Below are positions 4,559 through 12,480 of a stretch of DNA of 12,937 nucleotides, piece after piece. The stretch is from a virus, in UHGV virus genome UHGV-0262016, one strand, 5' to 3'. A program made the position numbers and the translations under genes. The notes below the pieces were generated by a model. It did not search any database and was not told where the DNA came from. It saw only the letters and a program-made list of their open reading frames with translations. Positions within the stretch are counted from its first letter, which is position 1. Every line of letters starts with the position of its first letter.

Positions 4559-5035
4559 TTAAGTTCCTGTCTTGGTGATGTTCTGGCTTTTCCGTTTTGA
4601 TTCTTGATTTTTCAAATAGTTACCTACCTTCATTTCCATTGCGGCAATGTAGGCGCGAACGTCATGATCAACCCAACTAGGCTCCGTAGCATTTCCAGAT
4701 AAGAGGAAAGCTACAATTGCTCTTTTTTCATCAGAGGCGGCTTGATAAAGGCTGTTTATGTCTAAAAGTTCACTTTTTGTATTTGAAGTGGATGGGGTTG
4801 GTATGGGGTATTCGTTAAGCCCCCAATGCTCTGGACCAACCACATCAGAAAAGAAACGCCATAGTTCTGGAAGTTTATCTTTACTTATCGAACCTTTCTT
4901 AATCCAGTCATGGATTGATGGTGGTTGGACTTTGAAATGACGTGCGATCTCCGCCTTTGATTTGACGGCTCCTGATGCAATTTTTTTGTTAATGGCCTGC
5001 TCTATCGCTCGGCCCAAGTCTTTACCACTAAGCAT
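4559..5035 (-). CDS. racR: Prophage repressor, HTH (XRE/CI-like), 158 aa, RacR-like
   Basis: 158-aa ORF with an HTH-like segment (SKAEIARHFKVQPPSIHDWIKKG); SD GGAG 11 nt upstream. Divergent from a cro-like gene and flanked by operator palindromes. The 158/107/141-aa trio matches the Rac racR-ydaS-ydaT layout as recalled; symbol by synteny and length. Confidence 0.65.
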   Translation of the reverse strand: MLSGKDLGRAIEQAINKKIASGAVKSKAEIARHFKVQPPSIHDWIKKGSISKDKLPELWRFFSDVVGPEHWGLNEYPIPTPSTSNTKSELLDINSLYQAASDEKRAIVAFLLSGNATEPSWVDHDVRAYIAAMEMKVGNYLKNQESKRKSQNITKTGT

Positions 5036-5063
5036 TGCTTAATAGTCTCCTATGCGCATCGCG

Positions 5064-5132
5064 TTAGGCAATCCCTATGTTTAGTGCATTAGGCATAGCC
5101 TATTGACAATTGCGTTAGGCGAAGCCTAATAT
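5064..5132 (+). promoter_or_regulatory. OR/PR region: three operators (OR3 5064-5078, OR2 5089-5103, OR1 5115-5129) and the rightward promoter
   Basis: OR1 TTAGGCgaaGCCTAA is a perfect palindrome; OR2 TTAGGCataGCCTAT; OR3 TTAGGCaatCCCTAT is degenerate. Centres are 25-26 bp apart. -35 TTGACA 5103-5108, 18-bp spacer, -10 TAATAT 5127-5132; OR1 overlaps the spacer and -10. Confidence 0.65.
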
Positions 5133-5159
5133 CATTGTGTGTTTTTTGGAGTTCATTCG

Positions 5160-5483
5160 ATGAAAAAAGAGAACTATTCATTCAAACGGGCTTGTGCTGT
5201 TGTCGGTGGGCAATCAGCAATGGCTAGGCTTTTAGGTGTATCTCCTCCAAGCGTAAATCAATGGATCAAAGGTGTACGTCAGTTGCCTGCTGAGAGATGT
5301 CCTGCGATTGAACGAGCAACAAAAGGTGGTGTCCTGTGTGAAGAACTTCGTCCTGATGTTGATTGGTCATACTTACGACGCCCGTCATGTTATTCGCAGA
5401 ATATGTCGATGAAGCAACCAAATGACGAAAACGATCATACCCGAAGCATCAAGAGGCAAATGATTCATGAAAATCAAACATGA
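5160..5483 (+). CDS. ydaS: Cro/CII-like HTH protein (YdaS-like)
   Basis: ATG at 5160 with SD GGAG 8 nt upstream, about 28 nt after the PR -10. HTH-like GGQSAMARLLGVSPPSVNQWIKG. Divergent from the repressor. Confidence 0.6.
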   Translation: MKKENYSFKRACAVVGGQSAMARLLGVSPPSVNQWIKGVRQLPAERCPAIERATKGGVLCEELRPDVDWSYLRRPSCYSQNMSMKQPNDENDHTRSIKRQMIHENQT

Positions 5484-5892
5484 GCACATCCGCATGGCGA
5501 TGAATGCCTGGGCGCGTCCGGATGGTGAAAAAGTTCCGGTAGCCGAGATAACCAGGGTTTATTTCGAGCTGGGCATGACGTTTCCTGAGCTGTACGACGA
5601 CAGCCATCCGGAAGCCCTGGCCCGCAATACTCAGAAAATTTTCCGCTGGGTAGAGAAAGACACCCCTGATGCTGTTGAAAAAATTCAGGCGTTGTTACCA
5701 GCGATCGAAAAAGCAATGCCGCCTCTGCTGGTGGCCCGAATGCGCAGCCACAGTTCAGCCTTTTTTCGGGAACTGGTGGAGACGCGGGAACGACTGGTGA
5801 GAGACGCTGATGATTTTGTCGCAGTGGCGATCGCTGGTTTCAATCAGATGAATCGTGGTGGCCCGGCGGGAAATGCCGTGGTCGTTCATTAA
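5467..5892 (+). CDS. ydaT: YdaT-like protein (141 aa)
   Basis: ATG at 5467 overlaps the end of the previous gene; SD GAGG 10 nt upstream. Length and position as in Rac ydaT. Symbol by synteny. Confidence 0.55.
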   Translation: MKIKHEHIRMAMNAWARPDGEKVPVAEITRVYFELGMTFPELYDDSHPEALARNTQKIFRWVEKDTPDAVEKIQALLPAIEKAMPPLLVARMRSHSSAFFRELVETRERLVRDADDFVAVAIAGFNQMNRGGPAGNAVVVH

Positions 5893-5913
5893 GAATAGTA
5901 CAGGAGAAAATGG

Positions 5914-6207
5914 ATGACATTTACAAATGAAGGTCGAATTGTTTTTGATTTTGAGTACGAAACACCATTGCAGAGATTGATTATGTTAAGAATTTTCTGC
6001 TCTGGGAGTGGTGATGGTGGGCGCGAAAAGCGTTTTGAAGATCAGGAATTCCGACGTTTTTGTTGTTGTACGTTTGATGAGTTTGAGCAGGCTATCGCGA
6101 AACTTATCGAGATGGGAGTGATTCATAAAATAAGTTATGGATATCAATACGGAAAGCCATCAAGCGGTTACATCATCAAAGATCCGGGTGAAATTATTCA
6201 GTTATGA
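5914..6207 (+). CDS. Hypothetical 97-aa protein, translationally coupled to the replication initiator
   Basis: SD AGGAG 7 nt upstream of ATG 5914; its stop overlaps the next start (ATGA at 6204-6207). Confidence 0.5.
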   Translation: MTFTNEGRIVFDFEYETPLQRLIMLRIFCSGSGDGGREKRFEDQEFRRFCCCTFDEFEQAIAKLIEMGVIHKISYGYQYGKPSSGYIIKDPGEIIQL

Positions 6208-7169
6208 GTCTTCTTTTTGCTGAACGTCCGCTGGTTATTAACACGCATCTGGCGATGAAAATTGGCCTGAACGAAGCCATCGTGTTGCAGCAGCTGCATT
6301 ACTGGTTGAGAGATACCGGTTCCGGCATGGAATGTGATGGTGTTCGCTGGATTTATAACACAACAGAACAATGGCTGGAACAGTTCCCGTTCTGGTCAGA
6401 GTCAACGTTAAAACGCGCATTTGCAAGTCTGAAAACGCTGGGGCTTTTGCGTTGCGAAAAGCTCAACAAATCAAAGCGTGACATGACTAATTTTTACACG
6501 ATTAATTACGAGAGCGAGCTTTTAGATGGTGGCAAAGTGAGCGAATCCATCAGGTCAAAATGCGCTGCTCCATCAGGTCAAAATGACACGATGGAAGAGG
6601 TCAAAATGAAACGCTCCATTGGTTCAAAACGACCCAATGTCATCGGGTCAAAATGGCCCGATGATCTTACAGAGAATACAACAGAGATTACTACAGAGAA
6701 TAAAAATACTTCTCGTCCGGAAGCTTCGCAACCGGACCCGCAGACGGCTGAACAGGATTTTTTAACCCGGCACCCTGACGCGGTTGTGTTCAGTGCGAAA
6801 AAACGCCGATGGGGAAGCCAGGAAGATTTGGCGTGTGCGCAGTGGATCTGGGGGCGGGTTGTAAACCTGTACGAACAGGCTGCCAGCGACGATGGCGAGA
6901 TCACGCGACCGAAAGAGCCCAACTGGACGGAATGGGCCAATGACGTGCGCACAATGCGGATGCTTGATGGCAGAACTCACAGGCAAATTTGCGAAATGTT
7001 TGGTCGGGTACAGCGGGATCCCTTTTGGGTAAAAAATATCATGAGTCCGTCAAAGCTTCGTGAAAAATGGGACGAACTGGTCATCCGCCTGGGGCGTTCG
7101 CCTGTACAGCGTTGTGTGAATCACATTTCTGAACCGGACACTGAAATTCCGCCGGGGTTCAGGGGGTGA
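6204..7169 (+). CDS. Replication initiator (lambda O-like origin-binding protein) with the origin iterons inside its coding sequence
   Basis: 321-aa ORF. Its central linker is encoded by five ~23-bp iterons followed by an AT-rich repeat block, the hallmark of lambdoid O genes. Confidence 0.7.
   Translation: MSLLFAERPLVINTHLAMKIGLNEAIVLQQLHYWLRDTGSGMECDGVRWIYNTTEQWLEQFPFWSESTLKRAFASLKTLGLLRCEKLNKSKRDMTNFYTINYESELLDGGKVSESIRSKCAAPSGQNDTMEEVKMKRSIGSKRPNVIGSKWPDDLTENTTEITTENKNTSRPEASQPDPQTAEQDFLTRHPDAVVFSAKKRRWGSQEDLACAQWIWGRVVNLYEQAASDDGEITRPKEPNWTEWANDVRTMRMLDGRTHRQICEMFGRVQRDPFWVKNIMSPSKLREKWDELVIRLGRSPVQRCVNHISEPDTEIPPGFRG
6545..6702. repeat. Putative phage replication origin: five iterons (core GGTCAAAATG at 6553, 6576, 6599, ~6621, 6646) plus three 12-bp-phased ACAGAGA(A/T)TA repeats (6669, 6681, 6693)
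   Basis: Iteron copies 1 and 2 share 17 identical bases (TCCATCAGGTCAAAATG). Spacing is 22-25 bp (about two helical turns). An AT-rich block follows immediately. Confidence 0.65.
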
Positions 7170-7209
7170 GTGTTGATTTCAGGTTATGAGGTAATTTTCA
7201 GGAGGGCTT

Positions 7210-7629
7210 GTGGCAAAAGTATTTACACAAGAAGAGCGGGAAAAAATTAAAGGGCAGGTTATTGAACTTGTACACCAGAGTGGGCGCGAGACGTTACGGC
7301 AACTGGAAGCCAAGACAGGTGCGACAAGATATCTGATGAGCGTTCTCGCAAGAGAGCTGGTTGCCAGTGGGGATGTATACAACTCTGGCTACGGGTTATT
7401 CCCGTCAGAACAGGCTCGTAAGGACTGGCAAAACGCCCGCAAAAAACTCTCGAGAGCAAAGCTGAAGAAAACATCTGTGGTTGATCCGGACCTTATCTGG
7501 TCGTTACCAGACGGAGAAATACGCCGCTACGACAGGCGTCAGAACATAATCTGTCGCGAGTGCCGGAGAAGTGAAGTTATGCAGCGAGTTTTGATGTTTT
7601 ACAGGGGTAATAACGGAGCAACGATATGA
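7210..7629 (+). CDS. Hypothetical 139-aa protein with a possible N-terminal winged-helix/HTH segment
   Basis: GTG start at 7210 with SD GGAGG 4 nt upstream; stop overlaps the next start (ATGA). Product begins MAKVFTQEEREKIKGQVIELVHQSGRETLRQLEAKTGATRYLMSVLARELV. Confidence 0.5.
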   Translation: MAKVFTQEEREKIKGQVIELVHQSGRETLRQLEAKTGATRYLMSVLARELVASGDVYNSGYGLFPSEQARKDWQNARKKLSRAKLKKTSVVDPDLIWSLPDGEIRRYDRRQNIICRECRRSEVMQRVLMFYRGNNGATI

Positions 7630-7925
7630 GGGTTTATATCGCAGGGCCGATGACCGGGTATAAAAATTTCAATCGTGAGGCGTTTCACAAGGCAGAAGAG
7701 AAGCTGAAACGGGAAGGGCATACCGTCTTAAACCCGGCAGTACTTCCAGACGGGCTGACACAGCCACACTACATGGATATTTGCATGGCAATGATTCGTT
7801 GTGTGGATGCGATTTACATGCTGAAAGGCTGGCAGCGGTCAGCAGGCGCTAAGGCAGAACTGGCGCTGGCGGCGAAACTGGGGCATGAGGTTGTATTTCA
7901 GGAGGCAACCAGTGAGCAAGATTGA
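7626..7925 (+). CDS. Small protein with a YIAGPMTG N-terminal motif (nucleoside 2-deoxyribosyltransferase-like / DUF4406-like fold)
   Basis: Product MRVYIAGPMTGYKNFNREAFHKAEEKLKREGHTVLNPAVLP... SD GGAG 7 nt upstream. Family assignment is from motif memory only. Confidence 0.5.
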   Translation: MRVYIAGPMTGYKNFNREAFHKAEEKLKREGHTVLNPAVLPDGLTQPHYMDICMAMIRCVDAIYMLKGWQRSAGAKAELALAAKLGHEVVFQEATSEQD

Positions 7926-11087: not shown

Positions 11088-11423
11088 GAAGGAAACAAAA
11101 CAGAAACAACAATTGCCGTTACCTGTTGTTACCATGGCAAGTAAACGCATCTCAGGCGAGCGCATTGCACCGTTCTGACGCAGATAAATTAGCCTGGATA
11201 GATGGTGCTGGCAATAAAAAATAGCGTTTTCTTATCGGTGTCGGTAAGATTGCTGCGGGTGCTTGAGGCTGTCTGCCTCGGGCATGCCACTGTAAGGCAG
11301 GCAGAGAAAAGCCCCAGTTAACATTACGCGTCCGGCAAGACGCTTAACATTAATCTGAGGCTCCCTATGCATGACAACATCAGGTTAGCCTCTTACGTGC
11401 CGAAAGGCAAGGAGAAGCAGGCT

Positions 11424-11579
11424 ATGAAGCAGCAAAAGGCGATGTTAATCGCCCTGATCGTCATCTGTTTAACCGTCATAGTGACGGCACTGGTAACGAG
11501 GAAAGACCTCTGCGAGGTACGAATCCGAACCGGCCAGACGGAGGTCGCTGTCTTCGTAGACTACGAATCTAGAGAGTAA
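11424..11579 (+). CDS. hokD: Hok/Gef-family type I toxin (51 aa), HokD/RelF-like
   Basis: Product MKQQKAMLIALIVICLTVIVTALVTRKDLCEVRIRTGQTEVAVFVDYESRE is a Hok-family signature, nearly identical to HokD/RelF as recalled. SD GGAG 9 nt upstream. An in-frame upstream ATG at 11367 (SD GAGG 6 nt upstream) gives a 70-aa mok-like extended frame. Confidence 0.8.
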   Translation: MKQQKAMLIALIVICLTVIVTALVTRKDLCEVRIRTGQTEVAVFVDYESRE

Positions 11580-11976: not shown

Positions 11977-11994
11977 TGATGGGTATTGTGCTCT

Positions 11995-12480
11995 ATGGCT
12001 GAGATTGTTGAAGGAGTGCATTACCTTACGGTTGATGATCTTGTTGAAATCAATCGTTCCCTAATTGAATTACAGACGCCAGATGAGCCCGTTGGTGTTC
12101 TGAGTCCAGATAACTTAAGTTCTTCTCAGGCCCGTCCCAGCATGGTTCGATGGTATGAACAGACTAATGACATGTTTGTACTGGCATCGGTATTGATTGA
12201 AAGTCTGATTCAGAATCACCCGTTTGCTAATGCGAACAAACGAACAGCTATGATGGCTGGTTACGTCTTCTTGTTGTTGAATGGCTATGAGTTAACAGCA
12301 CCAGGCGATGAAATCGTGGAAATGGCAGAGGGACTGGCCTGCAAAATCTATACTCGAGAAGATCTCGAGAACTGGTTGTGTTATTGGTCTCGCGCGTATG
12401 ACAGCCGGGAATTATGTAAAACAGGCGCAACTATTGTTTTGTATGAAACTATCAAGCTTAAAATAGAACAGCAAAACTAA
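11995..12480 (+). CDS. Doc-family (Fic/Doc fold) toxin, 161 aa
   Basis: Contains the Doc signature H-x-F-x-N-A-N-K-R (HPFANANKRTAMMAGYVFLLLNGYEL); the N-terminal segment (YLTVDDLVEINRSLIE) is also Doc-like. Start taken as ATG 11995; a TTG at 11986 is possible. Confidence 0.75.
   Translation: MAEIVEGVHYLTVDDLVEINRSLIELQTPDEPVGVLSPDNLSSSQARPSMVRWYEQTNDMFVLASVLIESLIQNHPFANANKRTAMMAGYVFLLLNGYELTAPGDEIVEMAEGLACKIYTREDLENWLCYWSRAYDSRELCKTGATIVLYETIKLKIEQQN

Follow-up and report, generated by a model that had tools for sequence, protein, structure and literature searches.

Organisation of the locus

The stretch of DNA analysed here, UHGV virus genome UHGV-0262016 (12,937 nucleotides, hereafter the window), carries the gene of a putative phage replication initiator, and the middle of this gene holds two adjoining sets of direct repeats. 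The first is a series of palindromic iterons with a period of about 23 bp, and the second, immediately beyond it, is an array of three 12-bp units of the form ACAGAGAWTAC (the 12-mers). Together they occupy codons 109-168 of the 321-codon open reading frame (ORF). An original prediction, made from the letters of the window, had described the region as a lambdoid phage origin of replication embedded in an O-like coding sequence, and the two sets of repeats are considered here as that candidate origin. The coordinates of all features are collected in Table 1.

The iterons were first counted as five copies of about 23 bp. These are real and were recovered by a repeat search, which returned five 23-nucleotide copies spaced 23, 23, 23 and 24 bp apart with the last at 6641-6663. 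With a degenerate copy upstream there are six in all, covering 6525-6664 with spacings of 23, 23, 23, 23 and 24 bp, and the array begins at about 6525 rather than at 6545 as originally given. At least four dyad repeats about two helical turns apart are thus present. In relatives the position of iteron 1 holds a clearer AGTCAAAGTG or GGTCAAAGTG, and the cores of iterons 2-5 are GGTCAAAATG three times followed by GTTCAAAACG. The exact core GGTCAAAATG occurs four times, starting at 6553, 6576, 6599 and 6646, and is the commonest 10-mer of the 12.9-kb window. Any 10-mer reached four or more copies in 6 of 500 dinucleotide shuffles, a comparison that ignores both the clustering of the copies within 103 bp and their 23-bp phasing. 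There is no second iteron cluster in the window, every copy of GGTCAAAATG lying within 6553-6655. A period of 23 bp is not divisible by three, so the iterons cannot be peptide repeats, and their cores fall in all three reading frames (SKC, GQN, VKM, SKR and SKW).

The iterons are imperfectly palindromic about an A-tract. Across 55 distinct relatives, 72.3% of the cells are complementary about this axis, compared with 12-36% when the partner is slid by one to three columns, and for iteron 6 the proportion is 91.6%. Iteron 5 contains a clean compensatory pair, TA in 30 sequences and CG in 25 with none unpaired. Because of its dyad, iteron 6 is also predicted to fold as a single strand (-9.4 kcal/mol, z-score -5.5). 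Iterons 2-4 (6548-6609) form an island at the DNA level, being 87% identical to Staphylococcus phage fPfSau02 while the flanking DNA is undetectable by blastn. In Stx phages and in the relatives from enterobacteria, the Dam site that separates the iterons from the 12-mers is kept, as GATCTT or GATCCT, and it is possible that it provides a Dam/SeqA input specific to enteric hosts.

The three ACAGAGA(A/T)TA repeats originally described at 12-bp phasing were found at 6668-6703. The units are TACAGAGAATAC (6668-6679), AACAGAGATTAC (6680-6691) and TACAGAGAATAA (6692-6703), spaced 12 bp apart, and the first begins 4 bp past iteron 6. The surrounding stretch is AT-rich as described (73% A+T), on the distal side of the iterons, and markedly strand-asymmetric, the coding strand having A 23, T 10, C 7 and G 6 of 46 positions. 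This A-rich tract of low stability extends to about 6712. No other 40-bp segment of the ORF is as unstable as 6668-6708, which ranks at the 99.65th percentile of the window. A search of Rfam gave no match at the origin.

Table 1. Features of the candidate origin, its initiator gene and the upstream promoter candidate
Feature	Positions	Strand	Basis or remarks
pR-like promoter candidate, TTGACA-18-TAATAT	5103-5132	+	Consensus scan only; upstream of the cro-like, cII/YdaT-like, 97-residue (orf97) and initiator ORFs
Initiator ORF, 321 residues	6204-7169	+	PHROG 391 'replication initiation O-like', E 2.4e-95, full length
N-terminal domain, residues 1 to about 105	6204-6520	+	Presumed iteron-binding; near-invariant Y33-W34
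Iteron 1, degenerate	6525-6547		Core TGGCAAAGTG at 6530-6539, in phase exactly 23 bp upstream of iteron 2
Iterons 2-5, 23 bp each, contiguous	6548-6570, 6571-6593, 6594-6616, 6617-6639		Repeat search
Iteron 6, 25-bp near-perfect palindrome TCATCGGGTC-AAAAT-GGCCCGATGA	6640-6664		Inverted repeat
GATC (Dam site)	6663-6666		Separates iteron 6 from the first 12-mer unit
Array of three 12-bp ACAGAGAWTAC units	6668-6705	+	Repeat search; proposed unwinding and helicase-entry region
C-terminal domain, homologue of the lambda O C-domain	6780-7095	+	BLASTP
DnaT-like C-terminal tail ...VNHISEPDTEIPPGFRG	7107-7166	+	Last 20 codons of the initiator

Selection on the DNA of the two elements

The repeats lie in coding sequence, and their conservation was examined at the level of codons by comparing the window with 25 distinct proteins of a sister clade. 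Among identical residues the same codon was kept in a proportion of 0.437 over the N-domain (n=1928), 0.931 over the iterons (n=769) and 0.966 over the 12-mers (n=237). Protein identity to the sister clade is 78% in the N-domain and lower (70%) over the stretch that encodes the iterons. The codon identities reveal constraint on the DNA on top of that on the coding, and it is highly probable from these comparisons that the 12-mers are under selection at the nucleotide level.

It could be argued that the conserved object is instead a peptide, (T-E-N/I-T)n, acting as a linker or a short protein-binding motif, and that the conservation of the DNA is a side effect. The array is read as Thr-Glu-Asn/Ile-Thr at 183 of 185 viral loci and at 111 of 120 genome loci among the matches listed, and no columns of the initiator protein alignment are more conserved than T159, T160, E161 and T163. 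To set peptide against DNA, a codon-agnostic DNA scan (ACNGARAWYACNACNGARAWYAC) was used in place of a search for relatives by C-domain alignment, which had returned only relatives of at least 92% identity that were unusable as a linker-unbiased sample. The codons were exactly ACA GAG AWT in 113 of 120 loci among the matches listed, and in 28 of 31 origin-type contexts after redundancy was removed. They are fixed in this way in hosts from about 30% to 59% G+C, whereas synonymous alternatives are used freely elsewhere in the same ORFs, where GAG makes up 31-51% of the Glu codons and ACA 23-39% of the Thr codons. The sole freely variable position of the unit, W, swaps Asn for Ile, a radical change in a peptide, and the third codon positions are as conserved as the rest.

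The units are moreover not confined to this frame or to genes. At two loci (L331 and L398) they are read in another frame as Tyr-Arg-Asp-Tyr, and at a third (L148) one unit is read as Thr-Arg-Asp. At L342 and L350 the array follows iterons with no long ORF over it, only short reading frames, and it stands outside any listed gene on a small plasmid (L443, below). Of 240 steps between units, 16 are of 11 or 13 bp and so disrupt the frame. In lambda, deletions in the linker leave the O protein able to complement (PMC6022878). A conserved peptide is thus an extremely unlikely explanation of the array.

The initiator protein

The gene is about 91% identical in DNA to genes of phages PhiR42_1, mEp460_ev081 and HannyBb, where the neighbouring genes are also the same, and these relatives are annotated as 'DNA replication protein O', 'Primosomal protein I' or 'O-like'. 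The homologue in E. coli strain A8 is labelled 'hypothetical protein' by the NCBI pipeline. Both sets of repeats do lie inside the ORF as the original prediction held; its description of the gene as O-like is justified by the C-domain and by PHROG 391, and it does not extend to a Phage_rep_O domain or to an accompanying P gene. The protein gave no match in Pfam at E values up to 0.01, including none to the PF04492 (Phage_rep_O) N-domain, and BLASTP found no N-terminal similarity to lambda O. The C-domain, by contrast with this N-domain, is 35% identical over 148 residues to residues 135-270 of lambda O (E 4e-27, BLASTP); in the C-domain alignment the identities are 42% to lambda and 38% to Bacillus phage phiCM3, with 21 invariant columns. 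Homology of the N-domain stops at about residue 105 and that of the C-domain starts at about 190, placing the repeats in the part of the gene that encodes the linker.

The N-domain is 47% identical over 130 residues (E 1e-32) to the N-domain of a 'DnaD domain protein' of S. aureus phage fPfSau02. Its Y33 and W34 are at least 90% conserved among 82 diverse initiators that bear the array, and a few of the relatives match winged-helix Pfam families in this domain. From these similarities we consider the N-domain to be of a winged-helix type other than that of lambda O, and common to all the array-bearing initiators that were aligned.

Comparison with the lambda origin

The classical lambdoid origins include those of phi80, 82 and P22 (gene 18) as well as that of lambda, which is the best point of comparison for the window. 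Ori-lambda occupies the middle of gene O: its four iterons, of 18-19 bp (18 as annotated), have a spacing of 20-24 bp, and next to them comes an A+T tract, rich in purines and about 40 bp long (see also PMC5043065). Lambda O bound to the iterons opens the A+T-rich tract of supercoiled DNA (PMC5043065). Ori-minus deletions of 12-15 bp that act in cis map to this tract, and the O proteins made by these mutants retain the ability to complement (PMC6022878). O also binds A+T-rich single-stranded DNA, and the tract is dispensable for assembly of the complex of O with the iterons (PMC7466680).

The window resembles this origin in most respects of layout. The iterons of both are palindromes centred on an A-tract (ATCCCTC-AAAAC-GAGGGAT in lambda and CATCGGGTC-AAAAT-GGCCCGATG in the window) at a spacing of 20-24 bp, and directly on their promoter-distal side lies an A-rich, strand-asymmetric and easily melted tract. 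In both, the element occupies the linker-coding middle of the initiator gene, the C-domains are homologous, and the gene order is cro, cII-like, initiator. The differences are in the components. The window has six contiguous 23-bp iterons in place of four of 18-19 bp, and the original remark that their sequence is not recognisable as that of lambda is borne out by comparison with ori-lambda. Its N-domain is not of the Pfam Phage_rep_O type, and its melted tract consists of three phased 12-mers, whereas lambda has an irregular purine run with the unit-like remnants AAAGATTAT and TCAGAGAATTC. Unlike lambda, the window has no P gene, and a DnaT-like tail stands in place of the C-terminus of lambda O.

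We propose, with a probability of roughly 0.85, that a lambdoid (mEp460- or Qin-like) prophage has its vegetative origin of replication at 6525-6712, in the linker-coding part of its own initiator gene. The dyads, the frozen synonymous sites, the low stability of the array, the lambda-like position in the gene and the homology of the C-domain all favour the lambdoid origin that was originally suggested. The locus is a new member of the class of lambda-type origins within initiator genes, with a pairing of iteron and N-domain that is common to mEp460-like coliphages and Staphylococcus phages. On its own it would be an expected feature of a lambdoid prophage with an ordinary layout, and the 12-mer array is the unexpected part.

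Iterons can also have functions other than initiation. Those of plasmids, and cloned ori-lambda fragments, have effects of the kind of initiator titration, autoregulation, handcuffing or exclusion (PMC3349717, PMC4488673, PMC5397158), and the iterons of the window might chiefly be such a regulatory or incompatibility element, excluding related phages, with replication starting elsewhere in the prophage. Several stretches elsewhere in the window are indeed less stable than 6668-6708. This is nevertheless very unlikely. The full grammar of an origin is present: an unwinding-type tract directly follows the iterons, and its side and its place within the gene match those in lambda. The pairing of iterons with 12-mers recurs at 71 of 78 testable loci (see below), and the window holds no second iteron cluster. 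Regulatory roles would be in addition to the origin function and not in its stead.

Other systems share parts of this organisation. The Staphylococcus Triavirus phage fPfSau02 has the homologous N-domain (47%), GGTCAAAATG iterons at 23 bp and then units of the CAGAGA type; it differs from the window in having another C-domain and its own DnaB-type helicase gene downstream. The iterons of Bacillus phage phiCM3 are different; its C-domain is lambda-O-like, and its 12-mers, with the ATAAAAATACTTCT tail, are nearly the same as those of the window. In this phage and in BtCS33 the gene is annotated 'replication protein DnaD/O'. The searchable sources contain no experimental mapping of the origins of these Staphylococcus Triavirus and Bacillus phages.

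The origins that contain DnaA-trios or the DnaD recognition element, the single-strand elements of oriC reportedly described by Richardson in 2016 and by Winterhalter in 2023, offer a parallel that is conceptual only: in them a short repeat beside the double-strand boxes of an initiator marks where the opened strand is held, as the 12-mers may do, and is, like the 12-mers, conserved across phyla. DnaA-trios have a period of 3 nucleotides and a sequence unlike ACAGAGAWTAC, and the window is without DnaA boxes at 5000-7600.

The iteron plasmids (RK2, F and pPS10 type) come closer. They too have winged-helix initiators, phased iterons and an adjoining A+T-rich element made of repeats of about 12-13 bp. 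The repeated 13-mers are described as an unwinding element whose exact sequence matters and one strand of which is bound by Rep (PMC5043065; PMC10797057, citing Wegrzyn 2014). In contrast to the window, the iterons of these plasmids are located outside the rep gene and are bound by monomers, and plasmid origins usually need DnaA boxes, of which the window has none at 5000-7600. The plasmid 13-mers are also specific to their replicon, whereas the 12-mer is common to hundreds of unrelated iteron specificities.

Distribution of the 12-mer array

The exact 22-nucleotide pattern ACAGAGAWTACNACAGAGAWTA was found in at least 120 viral contigs and in at least 120 bacterial genomes (one genome per species), where chance would yield about 0.3 matches in 596 Gb if equal base frequencies are assumed. 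There were 100 records of isolated phages with the pattern, always under a gene annotated as a replication initiator, and 47 records of plasmids or phage-plasmids. The titled genome matches listed include proteobacteria (Enterobacterales, Acinetobacter, Vibrionaceae, Aeromonadaceae, Legionellales and Alphaproteobacteria), Firmicutes (Bacillaceae, Staphylococcaceae, Lachnospiraceae and other Clostridia, and Selenomonadaceae) and, beyond these, Chloroflexi, Fibrobacteres, Nitrospinota, Chlorogloeopsis and two candidate-phyla lineages. From this distribution the array appears to be a very widely conserved element that goes beyond the local feature noted earlier.

What stands upstream of the pattern is equally consistent in form and entirely variable in sequence. 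The preceding 170 nucleotides hold at least three copies of some 9-mer at 71 of 78 testable genome loci, compared with 18 of 200 control regions; these 9-mers recur nearly always at 21-24 bp or at multiples of this distance, and their sequences are unrelated between loci. The Chlorogloeopsis locus, for example, has 23-bp repeats upstream, and an Stx-converting phage has wholly different iterons (of the TTTCCCGAAATGGGGAAA type) followed by the same GATCTTACAGAGAATACAACAGAGATTAC... array in four units. In 113 non-redundant contexts the number of units ranges from two to six with a mode of three, and 211 of 240 steps are of 12 bp. At viral loci the array typically lies at about 50% of an ORF of about 340 residues, and the C-domains of array-bearing ORFs belong to the families Phg_2220_C, DUF6017, DnaB_2 and DnaA_N or are lambda-O-like. 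These families were assigned by Pfam scans and inspection, as single-linkage BLAST clustering of the N- and C-parts over-merged them. We delimited the class by at least two units at 12-bp spacing, directly 3' of repeats with a period of 21-24 bp, on the coding strand of an initiator with an h-Y-W N-domain; the window belongs to it, with three units at 12-bp spacing and with Y33-W34.

Two small plasmids carry arrays as well. On Bacillus velezensis plasmid pBamNAU-B3a (8.4 kb; L443, 1130-1236) there are three copies of CCTACAGGGAAA at a period of about 22 bp and then three of ACAGAGATTAC, with no gene listed over the array in the PLSDB gene table, which is incomplete. A 4.6-kb plasmid of Acinetobacter ursingii has a degenerate array (L444, 1200-1235).

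Some matches to the pattern were rejected as origins, none of them having iterons upstream. Two from Lachnospiraceae (L310 and L426) encode REYYREY in an unrelated protein, one (L419) lies in the gene of a low-complexity Thr/Glu protein with Thr-Glu-Asn repeats, and two, from Nostocales (L324) and from an archaeal genome bin (L349), encode proteins with Arg-Asp-Tyr repeats and were left out of the count. For any origin finder, the 22-nucleotide motif alone therefore gives false positives in the genes of repeat proteins. The full architecture is a simple sequence signature by which origins may be found in prophages and in metagenomic viral contigs.

Full texts of papers were searched for GGTCAAAATG and ACAGAGAATAC as DNA and for TENTTE and TEITTE as peptides, and gave only unrelated primers and noise from optical character recognition. 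No description of the array was found in the searchable literature, which omits much of the older work on phage replication, and an earlier description is possible.

Possible recognition of the 12-mer

In the general view, the part of a phage or plasmid origin that melts is A+T-rich DNA of a sequence that is specific to the replicon. The 12-mer departs from this, overriding codon preference from about 30% to 59% G+C beside hundreds of unrelated iteron specificities, and its conservation points to a shared recognition step in the opening of the origin or in the loading of the helicase. Since the nucleotides of the unit are conserved irrespective of the iterons, the C-domain family, the G+C content of the host and sometimes the reading frame, we infer that it is recognised sequence-specifically. 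The proposal that the 12-mer is a sequence-specific opening or loading element, and not merely generic A+T-rich DNA, would on this comparative evidence lie somewhere between a tentative suggestion and an even chance.

If the unit is read in this way, the reader that we favour is a conserved surface of the shared N-domain superfamily, which might extend from the iterons or capture one strand, much as DnaA does with DnaA-trios or plasmid Rep proteins with their 13-mers. This is because the superfamily is the only protein part common to all array-bearing initiators, and because the 12-bp unit is about half of the 23-bp iteron, that is, one monomer's share. Alternatively, the reader could be a universally conserved component of the host replisome.

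The array might also have been kept for a quite different reason, as a recombination linker that provides shared homology at the joint between a specificity module (N-domain and iterons) and a helicase-recruitment module (C-domain). Mosaic joints do coincide with the array at about 6700-6702: the similarity to Klebsiella phage initiators stops at query 496-499, and that to other coliphage 'O' genes starts at 497. The array likewise joins one N-domain superfamily to the many C-domain families listed above. Selection for future recombination is weak, however, whereas about 36 bp are nearly invariant across phyla whose phages cannot meet, and the array is also found where no protein modules join, in the intergenic loci L342 and L350 and on the small plasmid. 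Relative to the iterons its side never changes, no DNA of the gene is less stable, and the origin of lambda requires the corresponding region in cis (PMC6022878). A conserved block is in any case expected to gather joints as a by-product of its conservation, and retention as a linker is, in our view, very unlikely. The architecture itself would account for the mosaic joints of initiator genes at precisely this place.

Returning to recognition of the 12-mer, the broadest form of our proposal is a tentative one. ACAGAGAWTAC at 12 bp may be a universal, sequence-specific opening and helicase-entry element of a very large initiator superfamily of phages, prophages and some plasmids across phyla, probably read as one strand by the N-domain or by a conserved replisome protein, while the iterons diversify freely to give replicon specificity; the window would then be a one-protein module that passes the loading of DnaB to the host via a tail that mimics DnaT. 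If the element is universal, the window is a convenient example that is tractable in E. coli.

A proposed initiation pathway

The anatomy of the locus, purifying selection at the DNA level on both elements, the two domain homologies, the absence of a loader gene by annotation and the generality of the architecture are established here. Analogy with lambda suggests a division of labour in which 6525-6664 would be the landing pad of the initiator and 6668-6712 the site of unwinding and helicase entry. Rightward transcription from the pR-like promoter would give rise to the initiator, and dimers of its N-terminal winged-helix domain would bind the six palindromic 23-bp iterons and, in the manner of lambda O, wrap or bend the DNA. 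The resulting stress would open the adjoining A-rich array of three units, which would serve as the unwinding and helicase-entry site, and host DnaB(-DnaC) would then be recruited by the lambda-O-like C-domain or the DnaT-like tail, or by the two together.

The last step is suggested by the gene content. No P, DnaC or DnaB gene is annotated in the window or in the complete genome of PhiR42_1, where the initiator is the sole annotated replication gene, and the O/P module of lambda is thus not reproduced. Since the phage has no P, DnaC or DnaB, host DnaB would have to come through the initiator. The last 21 residues of the initiator (...EPDTEIPPGFRG) resemble the C-terminus of E. coli DnaT, corresponding to positions 160-179 of the NCBIfam DnaT model and to residues 159-179 of the DnaT chains 2ru8, 6aep and 9zbt_D in the PDB. 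The likeness is limited to the tail: the match to the NCBIfam model reaches 16.3 bits, where the cut-off is 201, and covers only the last 20 residues, and the protein as a whole is not a DnaT. Similar xPxGFRG tails are found on relatives that have other C-domains. The C-terminal domain of DnaT docks on PriA and forms filaments on the DnaB-loading strand, in a paper that is silent on the contacts of the tail itself (PMC13377028). The C-domain of the initiator was considered as a homologue of this DnaT domain, which would have offered a ready model of a filament on single-stranded DNA, and was rejected, as a profile of 10 lambda-O-like C-domains found no DnaT chain in the PDB and no DnaT in Pfam. 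The initiator may be a one-protein replication module that mimics DnaT to borrow the helicase loading of the host, and the absence of a helicase loader together with the tail suggests an undescribed route by which temperate phages do so.

Several observations weigh against parts of this proposal. The loading step, for which the phage has no gene of a helicase loader, is the weakest of the pathway. The computations point to no partner of the 12-mer: the array has no predicted structure on either strand (z-score 0.02), no DnaA box with up to one mismatch is present at 5000-7600, and comparison of the unit by eye with the consensus sequences of the DnaA box, the DnaA-trio, IHF and the -10 element gave no convincing match. 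The covariation that supports the dyads comes essentially from two clades, and its overall score is marginally above that of shuffles while other measures are not. The promoter is a consensus match in a region that has fewer such matches than its own shuffles. The searchable papers contain no experimentally mapped origin with this type of iteron or with the 12-mer array. The array is also not universal, since three viral contigs of low G+C content (L168, L167 and L136) pair GGTCAAAATG iterons with other repeats.

In these three contigs the place of ACAGAGAWTAC is taken by repeats phased at 12-13 bp, of the AAGATTA type or the ACAACTATA type. They may be a related or ancestral form of the 12-mer unit.

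Neighbouring genes

Matches to PHROG and Pfam give the gene order cI, cro, cII-like, initiator, with the repressor-like gene on the opposite strand. Between the cII-like gene and the initiator lies a 97-residue ORF (5914-6207, + strand), the stop codon of which (6205-6207) overlaps the first codons of the initiator (6204-6207). It has a weak match to the N-terminal part of phrog_4617, 'replication initiation protein' (E 6e-8), and may be a remnant or else a second small protein of winged-helix type; mEp460-type phages are without it. Directly downstream of the initiator is a DUF977/Ren-like gene, and just past it, at 7626-7925 (+ strand), is one for a DUF4406/nucleoside 2-deoxyribosyltransferase-like protein. 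Further downstream, a sok antisense RNA match (full length, 109.6 bits; 11257-11429, + strand) overlaps a hok-like ORF (11367-11579, + strand), and on these matches 11257-11579 appears to be a toxin-antitoxin locus of the hok/sok type within the prophage. A gene for a Doc-like toxin follows at 11986-12480 (+ strand; phrog_577, E 1.4e-50).

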